In this document: positions 14,414 to 46,902 of the stretch, in pieces
Numbering within the stretch: the first letter of the stretch is position 1
Layout: each line of letters starts with the position of its first letter
From: a virus
Virus record (IMG/VR): IMGVR_UViG_3300046370_000603
Length of the DNA stretch: 64,000 nt
Direction: 5' to 3' (one strand)
Made by a program: the position numbers and the translations under genes
The notes under the pieces: model-generated
What the model was told of the DNA's origin: nothing
The model's database searches: none
What the model saw: only the letters and a program-made list of their open reading frames with translations

Positions 14414-16953
14414 TGAAAAATTTTTTTAATAATTTTACTGAATATAAAAATTGTGTACCCCCTGGAGTTCGCCTACCCCAAATCGAAATAGATAAAAAAT
14501 ACTACGAACGCCTAAATTTAAAAGATGATGTTGATAATTTTACTTTTTTAAAGAATTTGTGTGATAAAAAATTAAAAGAAAATAGTTTAGGTAAAAATTA
14601 TTCTGCCAGATTATCTTCAGAACTCGAAATTTTAAACAAACTTGGTTTCACAGATTATATTCTTTTGAATTGGGATATTATTAACTTTTGTCATGAAAAT
14701 AATATTCCCGTCGGACCTGGTCGAGGGTCAGCTGCAGGATCATTAGTCTTATTTTTAATCGGTGTTACCAGCATTGACCCCGTAAAGTATGAACTATTTT
14801 TCGAACGATTTGTTTCAGAAAGTCGAGCAAAAAAAATTGAAGTAGATGGAATAACATATCTTGACGGAAGCTTATTAGCTGACGTTGATAATGATATTGC
14901 TTACGAGCATAGGCAAAAAGTTATTGATTACATTGAAGCGAAAAACCCCTCAAGAACTTCAAAAATTTTAACCTTAAACAGTTTAAGCAGCAAGCTATGC
15001 ATTAAAGAATGCGGAAAAATTGTCAGTGAGTTTTCTGAAAAAGATGTTAATGCTGTGAGTGACCTAATACCCAAGAAATTTGGTAAAGTTTTTTCTTTGG
15101 AAAAAGCTACTGAAGAAAGTGAAAGGTTTTTATCTTGGTCAAAAGAAAATCCTGAGTGCTTTAAAATAGCTCGAAAACTCGAAGGCTTATATAAAAATAC
15201 AGGAGTCCACCCTTCTGGCATTGCAATATCATTCTTTAAAATCTCTGAAATTTGCCCTCTTCAATCCACCAATGATGGCTCAATTATTACTGGTTACGAC
15301 ATGAATTGGGTCTCTGAACTCATGGTAAAGTTCGATATTCTTGGGTTAAGAACATTGAGTGTTATTTACGATGTGTGTAATAATATTAACGTAGATATTA
15401 AAAAAGTTAATTTAGACGATCCTTCAATTTACTTACCTCTTCAAGAAAGCTTAAGATCTCCACATGGTCTTTTTCAAATTGAAGCTGATACTAATTTTCG
15501 CGTATGCAAAACCGTGAAACCCAAAAGTTTAGAGCAGCTTAGCGCGGTTATAGCGATTGCTCGTCCAGGGGCTTTGGAGTTTACAGAACTTTATGCTGAA
15601 TACGTAAAAACAAATGACTCTAATGTTATTCATGATTTTTTTGCTGAAGAATTAAGCTACACAGGAGGCATACCTTTATACCAAGAGCAGTTAATGAAAA
15701 TGGCTGTTAGGATTGGGTTCTCCCTTGACGAATCCGAACAATTAAGGAGAATCGTTGGAAAGAAAAAAGTTGATCAAATGTCTTTATGGCAAGATAAAAT
15801 TAAAGAAAAAGTTTCTTTAAATAATCTGCCACCTGAAGTTGGTGAAATATTATGGAAGGTCGCTGAAGATAGCGCAAATTATTCTTTTAATAAGAGTCAC
15901 TCTATAGCCTATTCTACGCTAGCAGCATGGACTACATTTTTAAAATTCAATTATACTCAAGAGTTTTTTCTAAGTTTGCTAAAAATGACAAAGTTTGAAC
16001 CAGCTCCTCAAGAAGAAATTAGTCAAATCAGCAAAGAATTATCCTTTTTTAATATAAAATTATTACCTCCAGATTTAGAGAGATCTGAAATGGATTTCTC
16101 TAAAGAAAACTCGGACATTAGATTTGGATTAAATAGCATCAAAGGTGTAAGTGAAAAATCTTTGCAATCTTTGAGTAAGTTTCGATCTAAAAAACAGCCT
16201 AATAAATTTAAAACTTTTGTTCAAGCAAAAGAGTCTGGTCTTAATATTGGTATACTTTCATCTTTGATTCAAGCTGGCTGCTTACCTAGTTATTCTTGCA
16301 GTCGATCCCTGCTTGCTCTAGAAGCGCAGTCCTTTAATCTTTTGACTGATCGCGAAAAAAAATTAACGATTGACCTAGCTCCCAAATATAATTATATGTT
16401 GCTAGATATTATCGCTGCCGCAAAAGAAGGTTTAATTGCTAAAGATGGCAAGCCTTTAATGAAGGAGTCTAGATTTAATACTTTTAAATCAAAATATGAA
16501 AAATATAAATCTATTTATTTACAAAATAAGCAGTATGAAAAATTTGCTAATTGGTATTTTGAAAGTAAGCTTTTGGGTTATAGTTATAGTAGTGACTTAA
16601 AATCTGTATTCAATGATTCTGAAATTATATATAATTCAAATGATTTTTATAATAATGATTCTTGCAGAGGGAAATTTATTGGAATTGTTTTTGATTATTA
16701 TAAAGGCACTAGCAGAAATGGTAATAAATATGTAAAACTTATATTACATGATGAATATGGTAAATACCCAGTAATGTTCATGGATAATTCAAGAGGCGCT
16801 AAATACAGTGAATATTTAGATTCTGGAAAAAAACTTCCAGAAAAAGATGATATAATAGGTGTAATTGGTTCTAAGTTTTCGGACATTATTTTCGCTGACA
16901 ATATTTTACCTTTGCAAGAAAAAATTTACATGAAATTAGGAGACATCAGATAA
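14413..16953 (+). CDS. dnaE: DNA polymerase III alpha catalytic core lacking the PHP domain
   Basis: GPGRGSAAGSL, FFERF, DVDND, GVHPSG, KFDILGLRTL, YQEQLM, YSFNKSH, IRFGLNSIKGV, C-terminal OB fold; TAATG-coupled to the exonuclease. Confidence 0.93.
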   Translation: MKNFFNNFTEYKNCVPPGVRLPQIEIDKKYYERLNLKDDVDNFTFLKNLCDKKLKENSLGKNYSARLSSELEILNKLGFTDYILLNWDIINFCHENNIPVGPGRGSAAGSLVLFLIGVTSIDPVKYELFFERFVSESRAKKIEVDGITYLDGSLLADVDNDIAYEHRQKVIDYIEAKNPSRTSKILTLNSLSSKLCIKECGKIVSEFSEKDVNAVSDLIPKKFGKVFSLEKATEESERFLSWSKENPECFKIARKLEGLYKNTGVHPSGIAISFFKISEICPLQSTNDGSIITGYDMNWVSELMVKFDILGLRTLSVIYDVCNNINVDIKKVNLDDPSIYLPLQESLRSPHGLFQIEADTNFRVCKTVKPKSLEQLSAVIAIARPGALEFTELYAEYVKTNDSNVIHDFFAEELSYTGGIPLYQEQLMKMAVRIGFSLDESEQLRRIVGKKKVDQMSLWQDKIKEKVSLNNLPPEVGEILWKVAEDSANYSFNKSHSIAYSTLAAWTTFLKFNYTQEFFLSLLKMTKFEPAPQEEISQISKELSFFNIKLLPPDLERSEMDFSKENSDIRFGLNSIKGVSEKSLQSLSKFRSKKQPNKFKTFVQAKESGLNIGILSSLIQAGCLPSYSCSRSLLALEAQSFNLLTDREKKLTIDLAPKYNYMLLDIIAAAKEGLIAKDGKPLMKESRFNTFKSKYEKYKSIYLQNKQYEKFANWYFESKLLGYSYSSDLKSVFNDSEIIYNSNDFYNNDSCRGKFIGIVFDYYKGTSRNGNKYVKLILHDEYGKYPVMFMDNSRGAKYSEYLDSGKKLPEKDDIIGVIGSKFSDIIFADNILPLQEKIYMKLGDIR

Positions 16954-19409
16954 TGGATATACTTCCAAACTTTACCCCTCGCGTTCAACAAGCAATTAAA
17001 ATTGCCAAAAATTTGTGTGTTGATTCTAGGATTAATTTAGTTGAACCAATACATTTAGTGTATGGAATTTTTAAAGTTCAAGATAGTTTGTTTTATTCTA
17101 TGGGCGGAGAGTCTGCGTTTTCCATGCAAGATTTAAAAAATAAAACCCTAGAGTTCCCTGCTTCTTTTTTGCCCAACGATCAAAGAGTTGATATCTCTTA
17201 TTCAAAAAGCTTTAAAATTTTATTAAGAGAGTCTTCTAAATTAGCCATGACTTATGGACATGATTACGTTGGGGTTGAGCATATCTTTTTATCTTTACGA
17301 TCTAACCCTAACGTTCAAAATCTATTTTTAAGTTTTAATTTGGAACCTAATTCTATTTTTGATGCTGTTCAATTGTCTCTTGAAGGCGACGTCGAAGAAA
17401 AGCGTAAAGATTTAAAGAAATTTTTAAACAAAACTAAGGATCGCAAATCAAATCCTTCTCCAAAAAAAGATCTTGAGCCAAGCTCTTTAGATCAGTTTTC
17501 TATTAATTATTCCGCATTAGCCAGTGAAGGTAAATTTGATCAAGTCGTAAATCGAGAAGAAGAAATCGACCAAGTAATTGAAATTTTATGTCGCCGTGTA
17601 AAAAATAATCCAATCATTTTAGGCGAAGCGGGGGTGGGAAAAACAGCCTTAATAGAAGGTTTGGCTCAAAGAATAGTATCGAAGCAAGTGCCTGATATAC
17701 TTTTAAACTCTCAAGTTCTTGGGTTAAATCTAAATAGTGTTATTGCAGGAACTAAATATCGAGGTCAGTTCGAAGAACGTTTGAAAGAAATTTTAAAACA
17801 AGTTCAATCTTCTGATTATAATATTTTATTTATTGATGAAATTCATACTTTAATGGGAGCTGGAAATTCCGAAGGGGGAATGGATGCCGCAAATATTTTA
17901 AAACCTTTACTAGCTCGTGGAAATTTAAAATGCATTGGAGCTACCACGTTAAAAGAATTCAAGAACTCTATAGAAAAAGATTCGGCATTATCCAGGAGAT
18001 TCCAAACAGTTTTAGTTTCAGAACCTTCAAAAAAAGACTGTTTTAATATTTTGCAAAGCTTAGCGCCAGAATATGAATCTTTTCATCAAGTTAAATTTAG
18101 AAGAAATGCTCTAGAAGCTGCGGTAGAGCTTAGCTCTAGATATATCAATGATCGTTTTTTACCTGACAAGGCTATAGACATTATAGATGAAGCTGCCGCA
18201 AAAGCAAAAGTTAAAAATTTTAATCGCCCTCAAGAAATTTTAAATCTAGAATCTTCTTTGGAGTCTTTAATTGACCAAGAAGAATCAACTTCCGACAAAG
18301 ATAGGAAGCAAGTTTTAGGAGAATGCATTGATGATCTCTTTGAAAAATATCAAAAAATATTAGATGAGTGGCAAAAGACAATAGCTAAGAAAAAAATATA
18401 TATCACGAAGAATAATATAGAAGAAATTATTTCTCAAAAAGTTAAAATCCCACTTTCAATTATCTCTTCGACTTCAGATGATAAGTATCTAAAATTAGAA
18501 GGTAATCTTAAAAAAGAAATTATAGGACAAAATACTGCTGTTCAAAAAATTTGTCAATCCATTCAGAGAGCCGCTTGCGGATTGAATAACCCGAACAAAC
18601 CAGCGGGTGTTTTTCTTTTGTTGGGGAAAACTGGTACTGGTAAAACTTTAATGGCAAAAAAAATGTCTAAATTTATTTTTGGAGGAGAAGATAAAATTAT
18701 TAGAATTGATATGGGAGAGTTTTCAGATTCTGCCAGCTCTTCAAAAATTACAGGGTCATCACCTGGTTACGTCGGCTATGAAGAGGGTAGTAACTTAGTT
18801 GATCAAGTTCGCAAAAAGCCTTACAGCGTAGTTCTTTTTGATGAGATTGAAAAGGCTCATCCTGATGTATTAAAATCTCTTCTTTCAATATTAGATGAAG
18901 GAAAACTTTCTGATAACTATGGTAGAACAGCTGATTTTCAAAATTGCTTAATTATTTTAACTGGAAACTTGGGTAGTGACATCTTAGATAAACCTTCTCA
19001 ATCAGTCGGCTTCCTTTCTGCTGAAATAGATCAAGATATTGTCAACGAAAAAATTCATAAACTTGCTTGCAAACATTTCTCCCCTGAATTTGTTAATCGT
19101 ATAAGTGATATTATTATTTTTTCAAATTTTACCAATGATCACTATGAAGATATAATATCAATTTATATTAAAATGCTAAACAAAAGATTACAGGGTAAAA
19201 AGATTAAAATTAAAATTTCAAAAAACGTTTTAGATTTTTTACTTTTAAAGTTGCAAGAACTAAATTTGGGAGCAAGACCTATAGAAAGATTATTTAATCA
19301 ACATATAGAATCAGTCCTTTGTAAAAATATTTTGTCAAAAAAAATATCCGATAATGACTCTGTTGAGTTTGATTATAAAAATAATAAATTTATTTTCACA
19401 AAATTATAA
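16953..19409 (+). CDS. clpC: ClpC/ClpA-type AAA+ unfoldase
   Basis: Clp N-domain repeats, NBD1 GEAGVGKT and FIDEIH, coiled middle region, NBD2 GKTGTGKT and FDEIEKAH, ClpP-docking VGF loop (QSVGFL). Confidence 0.9.
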   Translation: MDILPNFTPRVQQAIKIAKNLCVDSRINLVEPIHLVYGIFKVQDSLFYSMGGESAFSMQDLKNKTLEFPASFLPNDQRVDISYSKSFKILLRESSKLAMTYGHDYVGVEHIFLSLRSNPNVQNLFLSFNLEPNSIFDAVQLSLEGDVEEKRKDLKKFLNKTKDRKSNPSPKKDLEPSSLDQFSINYSALASEGKFDQVVNREEEIDQVIEILCRRVKNNPIILGEAGVGKTALIEGLAQRIVSKQVPDILLNSQVLGLNLNSVIAGTKYRGQFEERLKEILKQVQSSDYNILFIDEIHTLMGAGNSEGGMDAANILKPLLARGNLKCIGATTLKEFKNSIEKDSALSRRFQTVLVSEPSKKDCFNILQSLAPEYESFHQVKFRRNALEAAVELSSRYINDRFLPDKAIDIIDEAAAKAKVKNFNRPQEILNLESSLESLIDQEESTSDKDRKQVLGECIDDLFEKYQKILDEWQKTIAKKKIYITKNNIEEIISQKVKIPLSIISSTSDDKYLKLEGNLKKEIIGQNTAVQKICQSIQRAACGLNNPNKPAGVFLLLGKTGTGKTLMAKKMSKFIFGGEDKIIRIDMGEFSDSASSSKITGSSPGYVGYEEGSNLVDQVRKKPYSVVLFDEIEKAHPDVLKSLLSILDEGKLSDNYGRTADFQNCLIILTGNLGSDILDKPSQSVGFLSAEIDQDIVNEKIHKLACKHFSPEFVNRISDIIIFSNFTNDHYEDIISIYIKMLNKRLQGKKIKIKISKNVLDFLLLKLQELNLGARPIERLFNQHIESVLCKNILSKKISDNDSVEFDYKNNKFIFTKL

Positions 19410-19475
19410 GCAACTTAAAATGATTACTATCGCTATCAAACTTAATATTTGTGGTGCAGAAACGTGATGTATCAT
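19404..19475 (-). CDS. Putative 23-aa hydrophobic micropeptide (MIHHVSAPQILSLIAIVIILSCL)
   Basis: Minus-strand ORF with a GTGTA motif exactly 14 nt upstream (19489). Confidence 0.35.
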   Translation of the reverse strand: MIHHVSAPQILSLIAIVIILSCL

Positions 19476-19562
19476 AATATGATATACACAAATATTTAAT
19501 TTATGTGTAATTAATTCAATTACTATGGTATATAGTATATAACTTGTTCTTTAAAATTTTAT

Positions 19563-19925
19563 GGGCGTGTACTGGATTCGATTTAAGTTGGATTAGTATA
19601 TTGCAAGTAGGAGTGCATCTGGCTCCTCAAAAAGATGCAAAAGTTTACATGGCAATAAGTCACGTATTCAAGCTTACTCGCCTCAAAGCGAGCAGCTTGC
19701 TTTAGCAGCTTAATTCTGCTACCTTACAACCTTTGACGCAGATAAAAGGATTGTGGGGTCATCTATCTGCAAAACAGATAAAAGTTTATCCATATCATAA
19801 ACTGCGAATAATTGAAATGGTTAGTTGGATGTTTATGTCATAACTTAAAAAAAAATAAACTAAACTTGTAGATGTATATTTTTGAAAATTTAAAGACGGG
19901 AGTTCGACTCTCCCCACGTCCACCA
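19563..19925 (+). ncRNA. ssrA: tmRNA; tag peptide (A)GNKSRIQAYSPQSEQLALAA at 19651-19713
   Basis: Acceptor stem GGGCGTG/CACGTCC-ACCA with G3:U wobble, GGATTCGA D-region, T-arm GGGAG-TTCGACT-CTCCC, pseudoknot GGAG/CTCC + TGCATCT/AGATGCA (19610-19639), tag ending LALAA-stop. Confidence 0.95.
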
Positions 19926-19932
19926 ATTTATT

Positions 19933-21213
19933 ATGAAAAATCACGAAATACACAGAAGAGAATTTATTGCTAGAGCTGCCAAATCTTATTTGGGAGTTGG
20001 CTTAATGCCATTGGTCGGATCATATATTCATGATAACGCTTACGCTTTAACACCAGGTTCTCGCCCCGCTAAAGCTCGCCATGTTATTTACTTAAACATG
20101 GCTGGAGCAATGTCGCATCTTGACACCTTTGACCCAAAGCCTCAAAGCCCTGATGTCCAAGGTCCAATTGAGTCTATCAAGACAACGGTTGATGATGTTT
20201 TTCTTTCTGAAAACTTGCCTACAGTTGCGAGGCATATGCATAATGCAGCCATTGTTCGCTCGGTGACAAGCAACCAAGGGGCTCATGAACAGGCTAGCTA
20301 TTTAATGCATACGAGTTATCAAAAGCGCGGAACAATTGTACACCCTACTTTTGGCAGCTGGGTTTCTAAGCTTTCTGGGTCAATAAATAGAAGTATTCCC
20401 ACTAATGTAAAGATTGGAGGAGGAGGAGGGGGAGCTGGCTTTTTAGAATCTCGTTACGGAGCTTTACCAATAAGAAATCCTAAGGCGGGGCTAGCAAACA
20501 GTTCAATGGCTGACTATTTAGATAGTTCACAATTTAACGATAGAATAAAAACAGCTGAGCAATTAAATTCTGTGTTTAGTGAGAGGTATAATCAAAAACA
20601 AATTCGTGCGTATACTGATTTATACAAAGACGCTGTAAAACTAATGCAAAGTGAAGATTTAAAAGCTTTCGATATTTCAGCTGAGCCACAAGCGATGACT
20701 GAGTTATATGGCGAAAGCAATTTCGGTCAGGGATGCTTACTAGCCAGAAGATTGATTGAAAATAAAGTGCGCTATGTAGAAGTTACTCGCGGAGGTTGGG
20801 ATACACATGATAATAACTTTGATCGCGTTGCGGCAAATTGCGTGGACATTGACAAGGCATTAGGAGCACTACTCTTTGATCTTGAACTCCGAGGTTTATT
20901 AAATGAGACGTTGGTAGTTTTAACATCTGAGTTTGGTCGCACACCAAAAATTAATCCAAGAGATGGTAGAGATCACTGGCCTAAAGCTTTCTCAGCTTTT
21001 TTTGCTGGGGGAGCTATCAAAGGCGGGACAATTTATGGTCAGAGCGACGACAAAGGAATGGAAGTTGACTTGAATCCAGTTAGACCTGAAGATTTAAATG
21101 CTACAATTGCATATGCCTTGGGTCTCTCTATAAATGACATTCATTATTCTCCATCTGGAAGACCGTTCCAAATAGCTCATAAAGGCACTCCTATTTTAGA
21201 AATTTTGTCTTAG
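19933..21213 (+). CDS. DUF1501-family protein with twin-arginine signal
   Basis: RREFI Tat motif, VIYLNMAGAMSHLDTFDPKP, FGQGCLLARRLIE, GWDTH, SEFGRTP, GRDHWP. Confidence 0.9.
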   Translation: MKNHEIHRREFIARAAKSYLGVGLMPLVGSYIHDNAYALTPGSRPAKARHVIYLNMAGAMSHLDTFDPKPQSPDVQGPIESIKTTVDDVFLSENLPTVARHMHNAAIVRSVTSNQGAHEQASYLMHTSYQKRGTIVHPTFGSWVSKLSGSINRSIPTNVKIGGGGGGAGFLESRYGALPIRNPKAGLANSSMADYLDSSQFNDRIKTAEQLNSVFSERYNQKQIRAYTDLYKDAVKLMQSEDLKAFDISAEPQAMTELYGESNFGQGCLLARRLIENKVRYVEVTRGGWDTHDNNFDRVAANCVDIDKALGALLFDLELRGLLNETLVVLTSEFGRTPKINPRDGRDHWPKAFSAFFAGGAIKGGTIYGQSDDKGMEVDLNPVRPEDLNATIAYALGLSINDIHYSPSGRPFQIAHKGTPILEILS

Positions 21214-21703
21214 GCATTAATTTATCTTTTAAATAAATTTTAGCCTCCTCAGCGTTTTTCCAATCTTCTACTATAACTTTCTGGTTGTCTAAATTTTTAT
21301 AATTTGCAAAAAAATCTTTAGTTTTTTCAAGAAATCTTGGGTAGATATCATCAATATCTTTAATACTTTTTTCTTTTACTGTAGTTGTGACAATTTTATT
21401 GTCAATGTATCCACAATCCATCATTCTTAACAAACCTAACGGTTTTAGTTTTACTAATGTTCCTGCCTCAATGTGAGGATCTGTATCTAGCATGACTATA
21501 TCTACAGGATCTCCATCTTCTGCTAAAGTAGAGGGGATAAATCCATAATTTGCGGGATATATCATAGAGTTACTAAGTTCTCTATCAAACTCTATCATAT
21601 TAAAATTTTCATTCAGCTCGCACTTAACATTAGATTCTTTTGGAATTTCTATTATTCCAAAAAAAGTTTCTGGATATTCTTTTGCCTGTAGATTTAATTT
21701 CAT
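21191..21703 (-). CDS. ppa: Family I inorganic pyrophosphatase
   Basis: IEIPK, YPANYGFIPST, DGDPVD, DNKIV, FFANYK. Confidence 0.93.
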   Translation of the reverse strand: MKLNLQAKEYPETFFGIIEIPKESNVKCELNENFNMIEFDRELSNSMIYPANYGFIPSTLAEDGDPVDIVMLDTDPHIEAGTLVKLKPLGLLRMMDCGYIDNKIVTTTVKEKSIKDIDDIYPRFLEKTKDFFANYKNLDNQKVIVEDWKNAEEAKIYLKDKLMPKTKFLK

Positions 21704-22086
21704 TAAAATATATTTGATTCAGGATCAAGTTTAACTGTGTCAAAAACCATCCCTTGATCCCTCTGCAAATTAATTCCAAGGGCTCTTGGAGTATTTAACT
21801 TAGGATCTTTATCATTAATTAAAATCCTTGCGCCCCTTTCAATACCCATTATGATCCTATCATATGGTATTTTATTTTTATTTAATTCATTAATTGTTAA
21901 GTCTCTAAGATCCTCAGGTCTAGCCGTTGTTAGAATGATCATGTGACCCTGATCCTTCCATGAGTTTAGTTTATTTAATACTCCTGGCAGCACTTCACAC
22001 TCTTCGGTTGTATAATTTGCAAATTGCCTATATTTGAATATAGTTCCATCTATATCACAAAAAATTGTATTATATTTTTTCATCAC
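21703..22086 (-). CDS. Small HAD-superfamily phosphatase
   Basis: CDIDGT motif I, ILTTAR motif II, LINDK. Confidence 0.8.
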   Translation of the reverse strand: MMKKYNTIFCDIDGTIFKYRQFANYTTEECEVLPGVLNKLNSWKDQGHMIILTTARPEDLRDLTINELNKNKIPYDRIIMGIERGARILINDKDPKLNTPRALGINLQRDQGMVFDTVKLDPESNIF

Positions 22087-22892
22087 TCAGGTCTTTTACC
22101 AGTAGGCTTTCCGTCTTGACCAATTTCCCCCGCTCTGATTTTTGTTGCGGATACAGCTTGTAGCTCTTTGCTTAATTCTAATTGTTCTATATTGTAACCT
22201 ACTCCTCTTCCATAAAATACATCAGTAATATTTGGAAGCTCTACTACTTTAATTTTATCTCCAAATTCTACGCATGCTGAGTATATCTCTTGCTTTACTT
22301 TCTCAAAATTATATGGATTTTTCTCATCAATACCTGCTACATCTCTTAAAGCTATACAACACTGTCCTGTACGCTCTACAGCTTCTTTTACTAAAGTTTT
22401 ATGACCAATATGAAAAGGTTGATACCTTCCTATGAGTAAAGCTGTGGGCGCTTGATTATCCCACTGCTCGGTTTCGTTTAATTTTTTAATGACTTGCTCA
22501 GCCCATTCTTCAGGACTGCCATCTATCAGCCTAATGTCGTATTCCAAAGGTTTTTCAAACATTTTATTTGTATCTTCATATCTACCTTCTTGAATTCTGT
22601 CAACCCATACCACAAAGTCTGCATTAAAAGCTTCGCGAGTTTCCTGAACAGGACATACAAAGTCTGCCACAACATAGTTCCCTCCGATTTTAGCCCAATC
22701 GCAGAGCTTCCCCATTCTAGTAGCATGTTTTATTCTATCTTCATAATCAAACCCTAATTCAGTATAAATGTCTTGCCTTACAGCATCTGCATTAAACCAT
22801 GCGGCGTTTAATTTGCTCACTAGAATTTCTGCCAAAGTTGTTTTTCCAGAACCTGGCAATCCCATTATTAATATTTTTCTTTTTGTTTTCAT
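22083..22892 (-). CDS. Adenylylsulfate-kinase-like domain fused to a HIGH-motif nucleotidyltransferase
   Basis: GLPGSGKTT, ADAVR, LGFxxEDR, FVCP (CysC-like); GRYQPFHIGH and SATKIR (HIGH superfamily). Confidence 0.8.
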   Translation of the reverse strand: MKTKRKILIMGLPGSGKTTLAEILVSKLNAAWFNADAVRQDIYTELGFDYEDRIKHATRMGKLCDWAKIGGNYVVADFVCPVQETREAFNADFVVWVDRIQEGRYEDTNKMFEKPLEYDIRLIDGSPEEWAEQVIKKLNETEQWDNQAPTALLIGRYQPFHIGHKTLVKEAVERTGQCCIALRDVAGIDEKNPYNFEKVKQEIYSACVEFGDKIKVVELPNITDVFYGRGVGYNIEQLELSKELQAVSATKIRAGEIGQDGKPTGKRPE

Positions 22893-39027: not shown

Positions 39028-39690
39028 ATGTTAAGCTACACTTCAAATAGTCAAGCAGGTCAAGAAAAATTTGTTTTAAATACTTTAAATCATCCGTTTA
39101 ACGGTTATTTTCTTGAATTCGGAGCTTTAGATCCGCGTGTGTTAAGCAACACTTATTGCCTAGATACAGTATTTAATTGGAAAGGTTTATCCTTTGACTG
39201 CTCAAATCTTCATCTAAAATGGCTAAACGATAGAAAAAATTCCACCTTTATTCATGGTTCCGCTCATAATCACGACTATAAAAATTTATTCTCAGAACAT
39301 TCTGTTCCAAACATAGTGGATTATCTACAAATTGACATAGATCCAGCGATGGGCAATCTTCATTTATTAAAGCAATTAAAGGAAGAAGTGTTTCATGATT
39401 TTAAATTTAAAGTTATAACATATGAACACGATTTTAAAGGTGATACATCTTTGATACCTGCAGTTGAAGAATCTAGAGAAATTTTTAAAAACGCTGGTTA
39501 TGTCCCTGCTTTTCTTAATGTTCATAACCTTGGACCTGGCGATGTTTTCGAAGATTGGTATGTGCATCCCGATTTAGTGAATATGAGTCGAATAAAACAT
39601 TTTCAAACTTTCAATATCAATCAATACGTAAAAAATCCTTACCCTTTCATAGGTAAGAGCATAAAAGGAGCTGAAATAATTTATACTTAA
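39028..39690 (+). CDS. FkbM-like methyltransferase
   Basis: SQAGQEKFV, FLEFG..P...SNTY, DYLQIDIDP, ITYEHD, FEDWYVHP. Confidence 0.75.
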   Translation: MLSYTSNSQAGQEKFVLNTLNHPFNGYFLEFGALDPRVLSNTYCLDTVFNWKGLSFDCSNLHLKWLNDRKNSTFIHGSAHNHDYKNLFSEHSVPNIVDYLQIDIDPAMGNLHLLKQLKEEVFHDFKFKVITYEHDFKGDTSLIPAVEESREIFKNAGYVPAFLNVHNLGPGDVFEDWYVHPDLVNMSRIKHFQTFNINQYVKNPYPFIGKSIKGAEIIYT

Positions 39691-39731
39691 TTTTTATTGA
39701 CTTTTGTTTTATATAATGCTATGATTATATC

Positions 39732-41369
39732 ATGCATTACCCAAACACTAAGAACAATGTAAGTAAAATCCTAAACAGAAGAAATGATGGATACAATACC
39801 ATTATATGCAATGCGCCATGCCAAAGCGGTAAAACAGACATTGTTCCATGCCTACAAACAGAGTTTAAAGATAGCGGACTTTTCATTCCTATTGTTAGCG
39901 ACAATCACTTGTATGATGAAAATGAACGAGCGATTAGAGAACAAAATATTCAAGTTAGATGTGAAAAACTAAAAGATACGCTTGATATTTTAGAAAACGG
40001 AGGCTCGATACCCTATTCACCATTTATTGCTTGTGATGAAGTTCATGTTGGGCAAAAAGAATATTCCAGGTTTAACGACTTAATTATTGGTTTAAACAAA
40101 TATTATAAGCAAAAAAATTGGGGACGACCATTTTATATTCTTTTAGGAGCTACGAATTGGCAATTAATGTACGCTCACAATCATGGCACTTTGAGTAAAG
40201 AACTCTTTGGCAGAATTGATGCTTTAGATTTAGAAGTGGGGGAAAATTATTTTGGCGCACAAGAATTTTTAGATCATAAAAATATTATTTTTAAAAATCC
40301 TATTGATGGCATAAATAAACTAGAAAACAATGAGCTTCATCCATTTTTATTAGAAGAGTTAAGCCGCCTAGATTCTGAAGATTTAAAGCAAACTTTCACA
40401 AAAGAAGGTCTCTCAGGATACCCAATAGGTCTTATCAGAGTTGCTAGTTCCGCAGATGATGGCGAGCAATTGGCTCAAAAAATAAATCTTCATTTTAAAG
40501 ATAAAATTCATGCTCTTGCAGTTAACTCCACCGATGGCAAAAAAATTCAAAGCTCTTTCACTAATGCTCTTCGTGAATCATACAATAAACCTACGATTAT
40601 AATAGCCTGTCAAGGCATATCTATGGGAATTAGATTCCCTCTCAAAGAAAAACTCAGAATAGCTTTTGCTATTGAAGACAGAAAAGTTATTTCTTCAGTT
40701 GCTCAATCTTTTCTTGGTAGATTAATGGGGTACAGAGATCCAGAAAACCCTTTTCCAATACCTTGCAATATGTATAATATTGATGAAAATCTTGTTCAAT
40801 TTTTGGCGAATTTTGACATAGATTCTGCTTCCTTAAATGACAAAGCCATAGAAGATCTCCCGTTTATTCAAGAATCAGTAGCTATAGCTACTCATATGAA
40901 CGCTAAATTTTCTAGAAAATATACTAGAAGTGTTTTACATTATGATATTATTCCTAACAATATTAAGTTAGATGAAGAAATTAGAAAATACTATGAAGAA
41001 AAATATAAAGACAAATTATTAATGGCAACGAGTCCTACTTTTTCTCATGAAAAATACGAAAATTCATATCAAAATGATATACAAAAAGTCCTTCGAGAGG
41101 AAGGTGAAAAAGGCGGGGGGAATCGTTTAACTCGCTTTCATAATCCAAACGCTCAAAATAAAAACTTTCCTGAAAGCAAAAAAGAATTAAGGAATGCACT
41201 AGAAAGCCCAAACCATAGTTTGACAAGAAAAATTTTAGAAGATTTAGATGTTACCCCCGAACAACTTTTGGCAGCTTTTGACGAAGGCAGGTTAATTAGG
41301 ATTAAAATTACATATCCTGATGATAGAGTCGATGTAGAGATTAACAATAATGTTTTTTGCGAACAATGA
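39732..41369 (+). CDS. SF2 helicase/ATPase-like protein
   Basis: Motif I APCQSGKT, II DEVH, III GAT, VI QSFLGRLMGY; promoter TTGACT(39697)-17-TATGAT-6-ATG. Confidence 0.7.
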   Translation: MHYPNTKNNVSKILNRRNDGYNTIICNAPCQSGKTDIVPCLQTEFKDSGLFIPIVSDNHLYDENERAIREQNIQVRCEKLKDTLDILENGGSIPYSPFIACDEVHVGQKEYSRFNDLIIGLNKYYKQKNWGRPFYILLGATNWQLMYAHNHGTLSKELFGRIDALDLEVGENYFGAQEFLDHKNIIFKNPIDGINKLENNELHPFLLEELSRLDSEDLKQTFTKEGLSGYPIGLIRVASSADDGEQLAQKINLHFKDKIHALAVNSTDGKKIQSSFTNALRESYNKPTIIIACQGISMGIRFPLKEKLRIAFAIEDRKVISSVAQSFLGRLMGYRDPENPFPIPCNMYNIDENLVQFLANFDIDSASLNDKAIEDLPFIQESVAIATHMNAKFSRKYTRSVLHYDIIPNNIKLDEEIRKYYEEKYKDKLLMATSPTFSHEKYENSYQNDIQKVLREEGEKGGGNRLTRFHNPNAQNKNFPESKKELRNALESPNHSLTRKILEDLDVTPEQLLAAFDEGRLIRIKITYPDDRVDVEINNNVFCEQ

Positions 41370-41611
41370 AAATAAATAAAAAACTAAAAAACGTAGAGTT
41401 TGAATACGATGAAGAAACAAAAACTTTTACAATTATGGAAGCTGATGGATTCAATGGTTACATCCAATTAAATAAGGTTTACGCTTTTGCATTTATGCGT
41501 TTCGTTGTTCGCATGGCTCAAAGAAATTGGCTTCGGCAAAAAAAACTTTCTCCAAGCGAGACTAAAACTTCCCTTCCCGCTAATAATCAACTGGAAATGT
41601 TTGAGGGATAA
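41366..41611 (+). CDS. Hypothetical protein
   Basis: ATGA-coupled start at 41366. Confidence 0.6.
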   Translation: MKINKKLKNVEFEYDEETKTFTIMEADGFNGYIQLNKVYAFAFMRFVVRMAQRNWLRQKKLSPSETKTSLPANNQLEMFEG

Positions 41612-41625
41612 TTTACAATATAATC

Positions 41626-41832
41626 ATGAGAAATAATAAAATAAAAAGTTCAAATTTAATTTATGCAAGCGAAGATGAAGAATTCTTCTGGGAAAAAGAC
41701 GATAGCGTAGTTGAAGAAGGTATTGCTGTCGGATATGAAGTAGAGAGAGAAGAAACTCTTTTTGATGCTCATACTATTGACTTAGTTTTATTTGAAGATA
41801 TTTATCATGAATTCAAAGAAGAAATATTCTGA
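41626..41832 (+). CDS. Acidic hypothetical protein, paralog of 42051-42281
   Basis: KSSNLIY...EGIAVGYEV...LFEDI. Confidence 0.65.
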   Translation: MRNNKIKSSNLIYASEDEEFFWEKDDSVVEEGIAVGYEVEREETLFDAHTIDLVLFEDIYHEFKEEIF

Positions 41833-42061
41833 TCCTCAATTATTTGAATATAGAGTTAAATACAATGCTGGAGCAGGGCACTCAGCCTTAGATAGCTTCC
41901 ATTATTACACTGCTGAATCTGCTGAGCAAGCTTTAAGCTATCATAATGCTATGATGAAAAAAAATAACTTTAGAAGTCAAACTATTTCAATTGAGAAAAA
42001 AAATCCTTATGCTAATCGCTGGGAAGATGAGAGTAATTGCATAAACAGCGATGAAGTCTAG
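41807..42061 (+). CDS. Hypothetical protein
   Basis: ATG at 41807. Confidence 0.6.
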   Translation: MNSKKKYSDPQLFEYRVKYNAGAGHSALDSFHYYTAESAEQALSYHNAMMKKNNFRSQTISIEKKNPYANRWEDESNCINSDEV

Positions 42062-42281
42062 TCAAATAATTTATTCTGAACATGATTACGATGAATGCTT
42101 TGAATTTATCGATGGCAGTGGTAGAGTTCCCGAAGGAACAGCTGTGGGCTACGAAGTTAAATCTAATTCTCCAAAACAAATCCTTATATTATTTGATGAT
42201 ATAAAATACAGTAAATACAACCACGATTATTGGAATAATTTAGAATTAGAAAATGATTCCGATAGACTAATTTTACCATGA
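42051..42281 (+). CDS. Acidic hypothetical protein, paralog of 41626-41832
   Basis: KSSQIIY...EGTAVGYEV...LFDDI. Confidence 0.65.
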   Translation: MKSSQIIYSEHDYDECFEFIDGSGRVPEGTAVGYEVKSNSPKQILILFDDIKYSKYNHDYWNNLELENDSDRLILP

Positions 42282-42535
42282 TAGCTTTTAATAAAGACCT
42301 TAACAATGATTCTGATCCCCTTAAAAAATTAGAAGATATATTATATAAGATATATAAAGAACTTGATTCTGAAGAAGTTTGTGAAGAAGATGTTGATTTT
42401 GAAAATACTAATCTATCTGAATTACTTGAGATAGTTTATTTTCATTTGTTTACCGAACATTACTCGGAAATTGATTTATCAATTAAAAAAGAAAATAATA
42501 ACTCTTTAAGTATAAAAATAAATGATTTAAAATGA
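42278..42535 (+). CDS. Acidic hypothetical protein
   Basis: Coupled on both sides; directly upstream of the ECF sigma factor. Confidence 0.55.
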   Translation: MIAFNKDLNNDSDPLKKLEDILYKIYKELDSEEVCEEDVDFENTNLSELLEIVYFHLFTEHYSEIDLSIKKENNNSLSIKINDLK

Positions 42536-43071
42536 AGTTGGTGATAGATAAAGAAAAGTGTTATGATCGAAAAATTGAAATTATCAAACCTTTATTATTG
42601 CATTTTATAAGATCTAGAATTTACAATCATCAAGATTGTCAAGATATATTGCAAAATACTTTATTTATTTTAATTAAAAAGCGCGACACCTATATCCCAA
42701 GTAAAAGTTTTTATAGTTGGAGCTTTACAATATGCAGGTTTCAAATAAAAAGATATTTAAGTGAATCGTCTAGATCTAGAGAGTTCTGTTCCTCGGATCA
42801 TCTAGATAATACAGCTTGCTCAATTTTTGATCCATTTTTAGTTTTAGACAATAAAGAATCTTTATCTAAAAAGCAAGAGTTAACCAAAACAATAGAAAAT
42901 AAACATTTAAGCTGCAGAGAAACAGAGTTCTTTAAACTTCTTAAAGAGGGTAAAAGCCGCTCTGAAATTATGAACGCAATGAATATTAAACAAGTTAGCT
43001 ATTATCAATATAGAATTAGAGTCGCTCAGCGTTTCGCTAAACATTTTTCTGCGTATGAACAGGAAGTATAA
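42532..43071 (+). CDS. ECF-type sigma factor
   Basis: Region 2 DCQDILQNTL...SFYSWSFTICR; region 4 LSCRETEFF..LKEGKSRSEIM. Confidence 0.8.
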   Translation: MKLVIDKEKCYDRKIEIIKPLLLHFIRSRIYNHQDCQDILQNTLFILIKKRDTYIPSKSFYSWSFTICRFQIKRYLSESSRSREFCSSDHLDNTACSIFDPFLVLDNKESLSKKQELTKTIENKHLSCRETEFFKLLKEGKSRSEIMNAMNIKQVSYYQYRIRVAQRFAKHFSAYEQEV

Positions 43072-43630
43072 TAACCAACCTAGGAAAGATATCATACTCA
43101 AGCTTCGATCTAAAGGTTTGAGCTATAAACAAATTCAAAAAAAAATAGGATGTTCTCTTTCGACTATTTCGTACCATTGCGGTTCTGGTTCTGAAAAAGC
43201 TAGGGTCAAAAAACAAGTGAAAAACAGGAAGCCAATATGCAAAAAAGTCTCAAATTTTAAAGCTCGATGCACAAGAGCTAATTATCAGACTTTAAGAGCT
43301 AAAGTTAAAACTTTCAAGAAAAGACCTCCGTCATCAAATAAAGGTAATGCAATCGTTAATAATATTTCAAAAAATTACTCATGCAAAGATGTGATTAATC
43401 ATATAGGTGAAAAGCCCATTTGTTATTTAACGGGACTACCAATTAATTTAAATAAACCCGAAACTTATCACCTTGATCATATTATACCCACATCAAAAGG
43501 TGGAACTAATGATCTTAGTAACCTCGGTATCTGCTTAAAGGAAGCTAATTATGCAAAAGGCGAACTATCTCTTTTGGAACTATATGATTTATGCGAAAAG
43601 ATTTTGTCTTTTAAAAGTAAAAAAAAATAG
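43055..43630 (+). CDS. HNH endonuclease with N-terminal HTH
   Basis: LRSKGLSYKQIQKKIGCSLSTISYH; CYLTG...HLDHIIPTSKGGTNDLSNL...ANYAK. Confidence 0.85.
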   Translation: MNRKYNNQPRKDIILKLRSKGLSYKQIQKKIGCSLSTISYHCGSGSEKARVKKQVKNRKPICKKVSNFKARCTRANYQTLRAKVKTFKKRPPSSNKGNAIVNNISKNYSCKDVINHIGEKPICYLTGLPINLNKPETYHLDHIIPTSKGGTNDLSNLGICLKEANYAKGELSLLELYDLCEKILSFKSKKK

Positions 43631-43677
43631 AATTTTCTAAATAATAAATTATTATTTAATTAAATACATCCTATATT

Positions 43678-44007
43678 ATGAATGAAGAACAGCAAAATAT
43701 TTTAAAAAATTTCACAACTCTCGAAGAAGATTTGCACGATACTGAGTATAAATCAGATTTTGAAATCCTTAGAGAAGCCTGGAACATAGAGATTAGCAAG
43801 CCTGGATGCACTCAGTGCATTAAAAATGGGGCTATGTCTAAGTATAGTCAAATTGCATCAAATATGATTCTACATGGCTTATCAATAGAACAATCCAAGC
43901 AAGTCCTAGATCTTCGTAATGATTTAAATAAGAAGCATCAAGAAGTTGCGAAAGAAATCAATGGTGAAGTAGAAGCTGAAATCGCAAAAATCAAGGCTCA
44001 AAGTTAA
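43678..44007 (+). CDS. Hypothetical protein with a CxxC motif
   Basis: GCTQC; adjacent to thioredoxin. Confidence 0.6.
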   Translation: MNEEQQNILKNFTTLEEDLHDTEYKSDFEILREAWNIEISKPGCTQCIKNGAMSKYSQIASNMILHGLSIEQSKQVLDLRNDLNKKHQEVAKEINGEVEAEIAKIKAQS

Positions 44008-44010
44008 AAC

Positions 44011-44268
44011 GTGAATAAATTAAAATATTTCACTGCCTCCTGGTGCGGACCTTGTAAATTTTTTAAACCAACCATTGAAGAGTTGAAAGAAGAAGGGCGA
44101 AATATAGATATTATAGACATTGATGAAAATCGGTCTATAGCTTCCGAATATCAAGTTATGTCTGTACCTACTTTAATTTTTGAAAGAGATGGCTCTGCTT
44201 ACGCTCGAACAACTGGTGCCCTGCCAAAATCTGAAGTTGAAAGAGCTTTAGATTGGTCTCCTGAATAA
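44011..44268 (+). CDS. trxA: Thioredoxin
   Basis: FTASWCGPCK, VMSVPTL. Confidence 0.92.
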   Translation: MNKLKYFTASWCGPCKFFKPTIEELKEEGRNIDIIDIDENRSIASEYQVMSVPTLIFERDGSAYARTTGALPKSEVERALDWSPE

Positions 44269-44311
44269 TTTTTATTGACTTTTTATTCATATTGTATATG
44301 ATTTAAATCAT

Positions 44312-44485
44312 ATGAATAAAAAATACTTAAAACTTACAGACCTTTGGTTTGATGGCAAATATACTCAAGTTGGAAACGAAATTAAAAAAAATAATTGGAC
44401 AAATAAGCAAGTCATTGAATTTAGTTCTTATTTCGCTAAATATTGCGGTCTTAAAGAGCTTGCTATTCTCCATAAATTTCTTTAA
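44312..44485 (+). CDS. 57-aa hypothetical protein, not in the ORF track
   Basis: MNKKYLKLTDLWFDGKY...LHKFL; promoter TTGACT(44275)-16-TATGAT. Confidence 0.6.
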   Translation: MNKKYLKLTDLWFDGKYTQVGNEIKKNNWTNKQVIEFSSYFAKYCGLKELAILHKFL

Positions 44486-44504
44486 TTTTTTAATTATAAA
44501 GTTC

Positions 44505-44580
<76 letters not shown>

Positions 44581-44584
44581 CTTT

Positions 44585-44971
44585 ATGAATTCCCTAGATT
44601 TGGCTTGGAAGTCTTTTGAATTTTATTCCCATAAAATAGAAGAGTCTGAATCTATTTATCAGACTTATCATTTTGTCTTAGATTCTCATATAGATGAAAT
44701 GATTCAATTAGATGATAGAGAAAAAAAAGATCTTAAAAATAATTTACTAGATACCATCAATTCACTTCACAACCTTTATCGTAAACAAATGCAGTCTTTA
44801 GATGATATATTAAATAATACGCCCAATAATACATCTCACGCTGACCACAAAAAGTTAGGTGACTATCATCTTGCCAGCCCTGATTCAATCAACACCCTCA
44901 AAAGTCTTACCCTAGATTTAATATCTCAACTAGAAATAGATAAAAACAATATCAAAGAATATTTACGTTAA
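44585..44971 (+). CDS. Hypothetical protein
   Basis: Starts 4 nt after the tRNA CCA. Confidence 0.6.
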   Translation: MNSLDLAWKSFEFYSHKIEESESIYQTYHFVLDSHIDEMIQLDDREKKDLKNNLLDTINSLHNLYRKQMQSLDDILNNTPNNTSHADHKKLGDYHLASPDSINTLKSLTLDLISQLEIDKNNIKEYLR

Positions 44972-44973
44972 TT

Positions 44974-45426
44974 ATGAACGCTAGTGAAATTAGGTTCAAA
45001 AATATCTGCGCAAAAAAAAATTTTAAAATTTCTAAATCTACAAAAAATCAAGATATTCACGAACATTGGGATTTTAAAGTTAACAATTCTCTAGTAGATG
45101 TAAAAGGTCTTAAAAAAATTTCTCGTTCCGATGGTGAATATAGTAATGATATAACTTGGCTTGAGATACAAAACGTTCGCGGTAATGTTGGCTGGTTAAA
45201 AGGTAAAGCTGACTTCATCGCTTTCGAGCAAGAAGATTGTTTTTTAATTTTTCGAAGAAAAGATTTGCTTGATTGGTTGAGAAAAAAAATCACCAATTAT
45301 CGTTTTGTTAATTCGTCCAAAGAAGCTCTATACAGGTTATATCAAAGAAGAGGGCGCAAAGATATTATTTGTATGGCAAAAATTTCAGACTTTAAAAAAG
45401 AAATTAAATATTGGAAATTGTTTTAG
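44974..45426 (+). CDS. PD-(D/E)xK-like nuclease
   Basis: HWD...VDVK; WLEIQNVRGNVGWLKGKADFIAFE. Confidence 0.6.
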   Translation: MNASEIRFKNICAKKNFKISKSTKNQDIHEHWDFKVNNSLVDVKGLKKISRSDGEYSNDITWLEIQNVRGNVGWLKGKADFIAFEQEDCFLIFRRKDLLDWLRKKITNYRFVNSSKEALYRLYQRRGRKDIICMAKISDFKKEIKYWKLF

Positions 45427-45439
45427 TGTATACATAAAT

Positions 45440-45820
45440 ATGGATCACAAACATTTAATGGTAAATTCAACTTTTGAATCAACCCCTTTTACATCTACTA
45501 TTTTCACAAGCGATTGGATTCGTCATTTAGTTGACCTGATAGATATGAAAATCCTTTATGCTCCGCGATCAGTTAGGTGCGATAAAGAAGGAAATGAAGG
45601 TATCAGTTCTTTTTGTTTAATTACTACCAGTCATATTGCTCTGCATTCTTGGGAAGAAACTGACCCCAATCTTGTTCAGTTAGATATATATAGTTGCAAA
45701 CCTTTTGATTACCAAATTGTTTTAGAAGAGTTTAGAAAATTCTCCCCGATGACACTTGGTTGTAAATTCTTAGACCGATCTATCCCTTCAACAAAAGGAT
45801 GGATTATGGGAGAATCATGA
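45440..45820 (+). CDS. speD: Pyruvoyl-dependent S-adenosylmethionine decarboxylase-family proenzyme
   Basis: GISSFCLITTSHIALHSWEE...QLDIYSCK; ATG 45440 lies 14 nt after a GTGTA motif. Confidence 0.85.
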   Translation: MDHKHLMVNSTFESTPFTSTIFTSDWIRHLVDLIDMKILYAPRSVRCDKEGNEGISSFCLITTSHIALHSWEETDPNLVQLDIYSCKPFDYQIVLEEFRKFSPMTLGCKFLDRSIPSTKGWIMGES

Positions 45821-46104
45821 GTGTAAATTGGGACGAATATAGCGACCTCCGAGCTCCTATTCTTGTTACTGACGATAAAGGCTTAGAAGTAATTGTCAAA
45901 AAAGTACAAAACTCTCGATGGAATGGCATGTGCATACATCCTAATGGGGTTTTTTCATTAATTGATTTTGGTATTTCAATAATAGGTGATGAGACGACTT
46001 CTGACCAAATTTACAAAAGGAATTGTGTTTACGACGATTACGATCAATACATCAAAATGTTCAAACAGACTACTTATGCTATTCTTCGTCAATTTAACTC
46101 GTGA
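45817..46104 (+). CDS. Hypothetical protein
   Basis: ATGA-coupled ORF. Confidence 0.6.
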   Translation: MSVNWDEYSDLRAPILVTDDKGLEVIVKKVQNSRWNGMCIHPNGVFSLIDFGISIIGDETTSDQIYKRNCVYDDYDQYIKMFKQTTYAILRQFNS

Positions 46105-46122
46105 TTACTTTGTTTAATTAAT

Positions 46123-46902
46123 ATGAAAATTTACTTTAAACATTATTCAGGCGCTATTGCCGAATATGATTATATGTTCTTTGATTGCATGGCTAAAGTT
46201 TCATTCAGCGAAGAAGATTCAGCATTGCAACAGGGCTGGCTTCCAGACGACTACTTTCTACCAAAAAATGAAGATAGGAGTCATTGGTATCAAGCTCGAC
46301 AAACAAGAATCAATCTTAAAAAATTTCAGGAAACAAAAAGCACAAAAAAAACTAGAAAAAAATGCAGTCAAATTCAAATAAAGAAATATGAATGCGAAGA
46401 AATTGACCTTAATATATTAAATAATATCTTTTTAAAATATTTTGAATACAAGCAGTTTAAGCCTTGGAAGCTAGAACCCTTAGTTGAGCTAGAAAAAGAT
46501 CGAAAATTTTTCTTAGTTTACCATGCTCCATCCGAAAGTGGCGGCTGGCATAATCCCGTAGCCTTTACTTACATGAGAGATGTTGGGAGTAATAGTGTGT
46601 TTTCAACTCAATTTGCTTGGGATTATTCAAATCCGAAATTATATTTGGGCAAATATGCAAATCTTGCCGAAATAGATTATTGCATTAAAAATAATAAAGA
46701 CTATATGTACACTGGTATGGGTTACGAAAATTGCTGCATTTATAAGTCAAGCTATAAAGGATTTGAATTTTGGACGGGGGAAGAATGGTCTGATGACATT
46801 GACCATTATAAATTTTTATGCGAAAGAGATTCTAGAATTATAAATACCAAAGAATTAGATAAAATTAAAAAACATGATGATCAAAACTTTTTCAAAAAAT
46901 AG
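46123..46902 (+). CDS. ATE1/Bpt-like aminoacyl-tRNA-protein transferase
   Basis: LxxGW, RINL..F; C-terminal WDY..PKLYLGKYANLAEI...YMYTGMGY...YKSSYKGFE resembles ATE_C (LG...L.EI...YYYLGY...YK..Y). Confidence 0.65.
   Translation: MKIYFKHYSGAIAEYDYMFFDCMAKVSFSEEDSALQQGWLPDDYFLPKNEDRSHWYQARQTRINLKKFQETKSTKKTRKKCSQIQIKKYECEEIDLNILNNIFLKYFEYKQFKPWKLEPLVELEKDRKFFLVYHAPSESGGWHNPVAFTYMRDVGSNSVFSTQFAWDYSNPKLYLGKYANLAEIDYCIKNNKDYMYTGMGYENCCIYKSSYKGFEFWTGEEWSDDIDHYKFLCERDSRIINTKELDKIKKHDDQNFFKK

Follow-up and report, generated by a model that had tools for sequence, protein, structure and literature searches.

In Bacillus subtilis and Staphylococcus aureus the unfoldase ClpC is part of the ClpCP protease, in bacteria the transfer-messenger RNA (tmRNA) works together with SmpB, and the transferases ATE1 and Bpt take their amino acid from aminoacyl-tRNA. 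Among viruses, huge phages were reported to carry tmRNAs (Al-Shayeb et al. 2020, PMC7162821). In phages both tmRNAs and Clp-like ATPases have been annotated but left unexplained, and the results presented here make them testable. In literature searches no description was found of a phage family related to ATE1 and Bpt, nor of ClpC together with tmRNA in phages. The subject of this work is a stretch of 64,000 nucleotides (nt) from the IMG/VR virus record IMGVR_UViG_3300046370_000603, called the window in the following, which carries clpC, a tmRNA directly behind it and, 26 kb further on, a gene for an ATE1/Bpt-like (in short, ATE-like) protein. An earlier note, made from the letters of this DNA, had proposed that the three make up one phage-encoded system of protein tagging and degradation. 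We put the probability at roughly 0.55 that the region is to be read as two modules and not as one proven three-part machine: the first would be an operon-like block dnaQ-dnaE-clpC-tmRNA, and the second an aminoacyl-tRNA-dependent transferase of the ATE1/Bpt superfamily which would work with a conserved neighbour, U169b.

The window comes from the minus strand of a 73.9-kb viral contig of IMG/VR (CheckV completeness about 55%), and its G+C content is about 32%. The source is an uncultured marine phage with a genome of about 200 kb. The clade contigs used for comparison were G001 (205.9 kb, 100% complete) and the fragments G002, G003, G028, G032 and G035, while G000 denotes the contig of the window itself. 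The genes for dnaQ, dnaE, clpC, the tmRNA, the tRNA-Thr, the S-adenosylmethionine decarboxylase-like protein, the ATE-like protein and U169b lie on the plus strand of the window.

clpC and tmRNA in the replication operon

Upstream of the clpC region there are genes for a RecA-like protein, a DnaB helicase, a Toprim primase, a PD-(D/E)XK nuclease, a DnaQ-like exonuclease and a DnaE polymerase. The block in question opens with the DnaQ/RNase_T-like proofreading exonuclease (13721..14413), which was recognised by NCBIfam epsilon-subunit and polC matches and by RNase_T at the same place in the relatives, and continues with the DnaE-type core of DNA polymerase III alpha (14395..16953; Pfam DNA_pol3_alpha, E 8e-60, finger and HHH_6 domains). 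The stop codon of dnaE and the start codon of clpC overlap as TAATG, with AGGAG 10 nt upstream, and clpC (16953..19409) encodes an unfoldase of 818 amino acids. The tmRNA (19563..19925) starts 154 nt past the clpC stop.

The tmRNA was found 50-170 nt 3' of clpC in 7 of the 10 clade contigs (the window, G001, G002, L121, L122, L123 and L124). Across the contigs with this pair the ClpC proteins are 45-80% identical to that of the window (45-58% in L121-L124), and, besides the window, every relative whose flank was read (G028, G032, L016 and L121-L124) has dnaQ-dnaE ahead of clpC. By this conservation of gene order, clpC and the tmRNA are a conserved phage module within the replication operon of a marine phage clade. 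A more distant ClpC, without N-domain, is encoded in L099 with a tmRNA 2.6 kb downstream, and in two relatives the block is immediately preceded by a gene for Hsp20.

Residues 6-815 of the phage ClpC align in one stretch with residues 5-803 of B. subtilis ClpC (E 5e-175, about 38% identity), while ClpB and Hsp104 chains align to it in two pieces only, which indicates that its middle domain has the short length typical of ClpC. The Pfam domains found were Clp_N, AAA, AAA_lid_9, AAA_2 and ClpB_D2-small, and the Walker motifs (GEAGVGKT and GKTGTGKT) and pore loops (KYRG and GYVGY) of the two AAA+ rings are intact. The tripeptide V685-G686-F687 (codons at 19005..19013) falls on the YVGF ClpP loop of B. 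subtilis ClpC; to our knowledge the ClpB-type disaggregases are without this docking loop. The N-domain is weakly conserved (Clp_N 21.8 bits, a single repeat) and the protein scores under every NCBIfam equivalog cut-off. Its match to PHROG 4871, 'ATP-dependent protease' (E 1e-222), means that phage protein catalogues already include Clp ATPases of this type. The coupling of clpC with an intact VGF loop to dnaE, as described in the earlier note, was borne out by this alignment and by the TAATG overlap.

In order to judge the docking loop, its position was compared in nine phage Clp ATPases, some of them only about 40% identical, and it reads VGF or IGF in all nine. A single-ring Clp ATPase of 499 amino acids (L016:4742-6241; N-domain, D1 and M-domain, no D2) has IGF as its C-terminus. 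Such conservation shows at the sequence level that the ClpP-docking loop of the phage ClpC is under selection and provides the strongest argument at hand for a role of ClpP docking; the protein looks ClpP-competent. A quite improbable alternative would be that ClpC acts without ClpP as a chaperone which remodels the phage replisome or serves assembly, the adjacency of the tmRNA being a by-product of shared early expression. The translational coupling to dnaE, the conserved order dnaQ-dnaE-clpC and the Hsp20 gene upstream in two relatives would suit such a chaperone, but a [VI]GF kept in nine homologues and even at the end of the truncated form is hard to explain without ClpP docking. The genes of the single-ring, IGF-ending form are located between dnaE and the ATE-like gene (L016, also L017 and L018), and the protein looks like a minimal ClpP-docking unfoldase.

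The tmRNA is of the one-piece type and matches RF00023 over the full model (positions 1-374) with 128.5 bits against a cut-off of 47. In its acceptor stem 5' GGGCGUG pairs with 3' CACGUCC, followed by ACCA; the stem has G3:U70, the CCA is encoded, and the stem sequence is of the alanine-identity (tRNA-Ala-like) type. Compensatory changes were observed in the acceptor and T stems of the related tmRNAs, among them a change from C4-G to G4-C in the acceptor stem of G035. The tag frame (19651..19713) starts with the resume codon GGC at 19651, placed by the Rfam alignment, has 20 codons and stops with TAA at 19711-19713; its peptide, GNKSRIQAYSPQSEQLALAA, ends in LALAA. The frame from the homologous resume codon is open in 10 of 10 related phage tmRNAs, five of which belong to the LALAA class of the window and differ by synonymous or conservative changes. 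Since the tag frame is open, its changes include synonymous ones and the stem changes are compensatory, the tmRNA must be considered real and under selection; the complete tmRNA about 150 nt after clpC, with its LALAA tag, was thereby confirmed. ARAGORN made no call at this tmRNA when run on the window and failed on 4 of the 6 tmRNAs of the clade tested with it, to which Rfam gives 118-132 bits, so phage surveys relying on ARAGORN will undercount tmRNAs of this type.

Two of the ten related tmRNAs carry other basic tags ending in ALAA. In the remaining three (G002, G035 and L122, corresponding to the records L012, L101 and L122:7508-7914) the tag has 34 codons, is strongly acidic and ends in MVA. 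The tag of the L124 tmRNA has 31 codons and is very basic. Tags appear to have been swapped between otherwise similar tmRNAs. On a comparison of these sequences one tag can be exchanged for another, and a classic LAA degron is not a constant feature: the tag of the window phage ends in LALAA, as the earlier note says, but those of three close relatives are of the acidic MVA type.

No ClpP, SmpB or ClpS was detected by six-frame Pfam searches of G000-G003, that is in the window contig, two fragments and the complete 205.9-kb G001; the SmpB family PF01668 had no match in any of them, the complete genome included. The three proteins were also not found in the near-complete G028 and the complete G030, both of which carry Clp ATPases. 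The earlier statement that clpP, clpS and smpB are missing from the window can therefore be extended to a whole genome of the clade. Since the phage encodes no ClpP of its own, host ClpP is the partner to be expected for ClpC, and we infer that the clpC-tmRNA module depends on host ClpP and host SmpB. In the model which we prefer, the phage ClpC would cap host ClpP, and the tmRNA with host SmpB would free stalled ribosomes and tag the released proteins with a C-terminal peptide, which in the window phage ends in LALAA and would act as a Clp-type degron. Expression beside the replication genes would provide the phage with its own capacity for ribosome rescue and protein clearance during replication.

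A possible source of the borrowed parts was indicated by a 22-nt stretch at the 5' end of the tmRNA, which has an exact match in one cellular record only, contig C4 (JAYQMT010000004.1; L106/L114). This contig of 210.8 kb is part of a 1.7-Mb metagenome-assembled genome (MAG) of about 36% G+C, labelled Cellvibrionales. Between its tmRNA and those of the relatives with LALAA tags the identity is 82-88%, and with those of G002 and G035 it is 70-74%; its ClpC is 48% identical and is interrupted by stop codons, possibly assembly errors. C4 looks like a relative of the phage which was binned into the MAG, either as a binning artefact or as a hint of the host. The chromosome of the low-GC gammaproteobacterial MAG has clpS-clpA adjoining bpt and aat, and it also encodes ClpP and its own tmRNA with the tag ANDDNYALAA, to which the phage tmRNA is about 50% identical. 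The MAG is a weak hint of the host, and it would represent a plausible host lineage that should have every borrowed part. Cultured relatives were sought as well and none could be accepted: in 50,697 phage records the ATE-like protein had no match by tblastn and the ClpC matches reached at most 43% identity, mostly in bacterial-looking DNA under phage labels, and no close relative of DnaE was found in the search of phage records.

Some further features of this region are recorded here. DNA polymerase III alpha is seemingly split into separate, overlapping frames, a weakly PHP-like one at 13030-13785 followed by the DnaQ-like gene (13721-14413) and the DnaE core (14395-16953). Directly 3' of the tmRNA a full-length DUF1501 protein is encoded at 19933-21213 (Pfam E 3e-110), an unusual phage gene, which is kept at the same place in L121 and is in pieces in L122. 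In L099, a 98.7-kb viral contig, a GOLLD RNA (L099:11316-11722, 314 bits) adjoins the tmRNA and the ClpC that has no N-domain.

A putative transferase of the ATE1/Bpt superfamily

The second module is centred on the gene at 46123..46902, which encodes a protein of 259 amino acids. Taken alone, this protein reaches 24.4 bits with Pfam ATE_C (cut-off 25, E 5e-5), and 48 of 54 diverse members of its family match that domain. The family profile finds yeast ATE1 with E 3.7e-10, and hhalign against a canonical Bpt, a MAG protein scoring 286 bits in NCBIfam against a cut-off of 252, gave 97.7% probability and E 2e-12 over residues 32-222. The NCBIfam Bpt models align collinearly (residues 19-221 on 24-228 of 241), the best with 30.2 bits against cut-offs of at least 170, which is under the equivalog level. 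The AlphaFold (AF2) model has a pLDDT of 93.9, and its top fold matches are the human and K. lactis ATE1 (Z 15.5-16.9, 221-228 residues aligned over 1-259), the human enzyme with Z 16.9 over 221 residues. MprF, FemX and tRNA-dependent peptide synthases follow with Z 12.5-15.6 over 150-186 residues, covering about residues 30-220 of the model, so that ATE1 is the only match which covers the whole chain; the nearest solved structures are all aminoacyl-tRNA transferases. A generic GNAT, named in the earlier note among the alternatives, is disfavoured: sequence profiles match only ATE1 and Bpt. The FemABX/MprF enzymes are near in fold, and by sequence one LPG_synthase_C hit among the 54 members was the sole match to them. 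On profiles and fold, the protein is an aminoacyl-tRNA transferase of the ATE/Bpt line with a predicted activity, not a generic GNAT.

The N-terminal half of the suggested ATE_N/ATE_C architecture fared differently from the C-terminal one. ATE_C was recovered at the family level, with the window protein just under the cut-off, but ATE_N has no Pfam match in the window protein or among the 54 members, and a profile of the 115 N-terminal columns did not find ATE1 in the PDB. Identification of this domain as ATE_N by sequence was therefore rejected, although its fold superposes on that of ATE1. The family comprises 77 clusters in a set of 5.8 billion proteins, with 211 representatives at E <=0.001, and is represented in IMG/VR by at least 539 contigs; PHROGs does not contain it.

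The active site can be compared with that of K. lactis ATE1 (klAte1), in which K304 (K305 in FemX) is catalytic, a basic helix binds tRNA, and E277 is the only charged residue of the Arg pocket, S255 and W260 being further ATE1 positions; R80, the first Arg of GFRRSG, is essential for the recognition of Asp/Glu, and R80E kills the enzyme (PMC9351520). In the phage family K208 is invariant (54/54), preceded by Tyr in 46 of the 54, and matches K304, while the helix at 72-80, rich in K and R, lines up with the basic tRNA-binding helix of Bpt. E183 corresponds to E277; 42 of the 54 members have Glu at this position, in contrast to the Gln of Bpt. S161 and W166 match S255 and W260. The donor would more likely be Arg than Leu, as judged from this one aligned Glu and the Ser/Trp positions in a remote alignment.

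The acceptor side of the pocket is altered. The residue equivalent to R80 is mainly Leu or Ile, also Ala, Cys, Thr, Tyr and a few others, and is basic in none of the 54 members; this mapping was checked through a Bpt-klAte1 alignment, with a 4-residue tag offset allowed for. The phage protein has an 8-residue gap where Bpt has its CxxCxxC loop, and the N-terminal Cys motif is absent. Since both the Arg for acidic acceptors and the Cys motifs are lost, the acceptor is probably not an Asp/Glu N-terminus, and the transfer to acidic N-termini proposed earlier is not supported. The designation of the gene as ATE1/Bpt-like stands at the superfamily level, by profile, Bpt comparison and fold, but not at the level of the Bpt equivalog score or the Cys motifs. 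Judged by its sequences, the family forms a new branch of the ATE/Bpt superfamily, found in phages, in which the acceptor site is altered.

Neighbours of the transferase gene and a possible link with Clp proteolysis

About 90 ATE-like loci were surveyed for their neighbourhood. An unrelated pair of small proteins prevails: U168 (168 amino acids) starts about 5 nt past the ATE-like gene in 50 loci (L020:4034-4564 and 49 others), U169b flanks it in 25, and one or the other does so in about 75 of 90. The possibility that U168 and U169b form one family was rejected (hhalign probability 0.1%). The contexts of U168 are T4-like (nrdAB, SegE); its HExxEK and AHH motifs are conserved, and a protein atlas gave weak metallopeptidase-like leads. 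In the window U169b (47814..48266, 150 amino acids, DUF6875/DUF1415-like, with an invariant Cys-Pro) is the conserved partner, as in other lineages. An S-adenosylmethionine decarboxylase-like protein (AdoMetDC; 45305..45820, Pfam AdoMet_dc E 2e-9) is a recurrent neighbour, lying within 5 kb in 28 of the approximately 90 loci and in two unrelated genome layouts, and the order AdoMetDC, ATE-like, U169b is kept in the clade of the window. A GNAT acetyltransferase adjoins in one subgroup. tRNA genes are common neighbours, those for Leu being the most frequent; the window has a tRNA-Thr(UGU) at 44505..44580, 1.5 kb upstream of the ATE-like gene. A 101-residue open reading frame at 45799-46104 was considered as a ClpS-like adaptor and rejected, because its counterparts of the same length elsewhere are non-homologous and it has no Pfam or PHROG match.

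U169b belongs to PHROG 10325 and its model has a pLDDT of 91.7. The best structural match of this model was AglA (Z 6.5, 140 of 150 residues aligned, the next match having 4.6), with the invariant Cys22 near the position of Cys44, the haem ligand of AglA. AglA is a thiolate-haem hydroxylase of arginine guanidine groups (PMC12866846). Foldseek gave nothing at E <=0.001 for U169b, and its sequence profile gave nothing in the PDB; the likeness of the model to AglA is a lead only.

These neighbours suggest that the ATE-like protein, U169b and AdoMetDC might form an arginine- or polyamine-centred cassette unrelated to proteolysis, which would aminoacylate a small molecule or carry out a non-degradative modification of protein or nucleic acid. 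We consider this possible but doubtful. The conserved gene order, the two flanking families and the adjoining GNAT are in line with it, as are the AglA-like fold of U169b, the closeness in fold of MprF, FemX and the peptide synthases, and, by analogy, the tRNA-dependent GNAT enzymes which act in this way in natural-product and cell-wall pathways. Against it stand the whole-chain coverage by ATE1 with profile matches to ATE1 and Bpt alone, and the AglA match, of middling Z and with no sequence support, while AdoMetDC may be nearby simply because auxiliary genes cluster in an island.

Clp genes do occur next to the transferase. A ClpP gene (Pfam E 1e-32) is found directly upstream of it in 11 loci of a non-structural nrdAB context, and a Clp_N-AAA ATPase ending in IGF just upstream in 3, so that ClpP or a Clp ATPase adjoins in only 14 of about 90 loci. 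Most loci have no Clp gene within 10 kb and adjoin proteins of no known family, AdoMetDC, GNAT or tRNAs, which does not support a Clp gene as the regular neighbour. By raw count, a Clp ATPase is present in 6 of the ten ATE-bearing contigs with a completeness of at least 50%. Two-piece tmRNAs of the alpha type (RF01849), with proteobacterial-like tags ending in ALAA, were seen in many ATE-bearing contigs (G009, G011, G013, G016, G018, G023, G030, G046 and G049), and because of these forms RF00023 alone undercounts the tmRNAs.

An integrated system, in which N-degrons made by the ATE-like protein and C-degrons made by the tmRNA would both be read by phage ClpC with host ClpP (and ClpS) and directed against host proteins, appears unlikely to us. 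All three genes occur together in G000, G001, G002 and G028, contigs large enough to hold them, and the ClpP and IGF-ending ATPase genes beside the transferase, the tmRNAs in ATE-bearing contigs and the clpS-clpA genes beside bpt and aat in the candidate host lineage, a cellular precedent for such a linkage, speak in its favour. Aat of Escherichia coli extends an N-terminal Arg with Leu or Phe and so produces a degron readable by ClpS; if the donor is Arg, host Aat could do the same here. On the other side, the family lacks the Arg for acidic acceptors as well as the Cys motifs, the 210.8-kb C4 has ClpC and tmRNA with no ATE-like gene found, the constant partners of the transferase are U168 or U169b, the N-domain of ClpC is weakly conserved, and in the window 26 kb separate the transferase gene from the other two. 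The ties of the ATE-like gene to Clp and tmRNA recur but are optional, thus a single three-part system stays a hypothesis; of the original proposal, the linkage of clpC with tmRNA is firm, while that of the transferase is optional. In the two-module reading, the second module would be connected with Clp proteolysis in such a recurrent but optional manner.

A bolder version, to which we assign only a small chance, is a phage pathway of N-terminal arginylation. Arg would be moved from Arg-tRNA onto non-acidic N-termini of chosen host or phage proteins, and the product would then be modified by U169b, a role suggested by the likeness of an N-terminal Arg to the AglA substrate, or it would receive Leu/Phe from host Aat and be led as an N-degron through ClpS to ClpP capped by phage ClpC. 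If this were true, the arginylation pathway and the clpC-tmRNA module together would mean phage control of degrons at both protein ends.

Several observations weigh against the two-module reading or parts of it. The distance between clpC and tmRNA is 14.5 kb in G028 and about 20 kb in C4, and the G032 fragment yielded no tmRNA. The coupling of clpC to dnaE could mean a role in replication instead, and the acidic tags of three relatives depart from the LAA type. In B. subtilis the ssrA-tagged proteins are mainly substrates of ClpXP, and ClpC is not the textbook reader of the tag. The reading of the donor as Arg leans on few aligned positions, and the presence of a tmRNA (one- or two-piece) in 8 of the 10 ATE-bearing contigs mentioned above is likewise a raw count. 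Even so, two modules remain the description that we favour.

Comparison with known systems

The conserved clpC-tmRNA unit in marine phages of about 100-210 kb, which carry no ClpP or SmpB, leads to the concrete hypothesis that large phages take over ribosome rescue and proteolysis of the host. If active, the ATE-like family would be the first viral aminoacyl-tRNA-protein transferase, and the changes in its acceptor pocket point to a specificity that ATE1/Bpt enzymes have so far not shown.

Compared with ClpC of B. subtilis and S. aureus, the phage protein has the same order of N-domain, D1, short M-domain, D2 and D2-small, together with Walker motifs, pore loops and a VGF at the ClpP loop. It differs from them in its identity of about 38%, its weakly conserved N-domain and the fusion of its gene into a replication operon, and the phage which encodes it has neither ClpP nor a known adaptor (MecA, McsB or ClpS). 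The tmRNA shares with bacterial and huge-phage tmRNAs (PMC7162821) the full RF00023 architecture, G3:U70, an encoded CCA and a tag end ALAA. Unlike these, it has no SmpB from the phage, is placed directly after clpC and is missed by ARAGORN; the window tag is twice as long as the usual tags, and at least four tag classes exist among close relatives.

U169b resembles AglA and the YqcI-YcgG thiolate-haem arginine N-hydroxylases in fold (Z 6.5) and in its invariant N-terminal Cys, but has no detected sequence similarity to AglA, is shorter (150 against 243 residues) and aligns with a middling Z. The ATE-like protein is of the same length class as Bpt, with which it aligns collinearly and shares the catalytic Lys, the basic helix and the LG...YLG...YK motifs; with eukaryotic ATE1 it shares the whole-protein fold and the Glu of the donor pocket, where Bpt has Gln. 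It departs from Bpt in scoring about 30 bits against equivalog cut-offs of at least 170 and in its absence from PHROGs and GenBank phages, and from both Bpt and ATE1 in that GW(L/I)P stands in place of GFRRSG, the CxxCxxC loop is deleted and the N-terminal Cys motif is missing.

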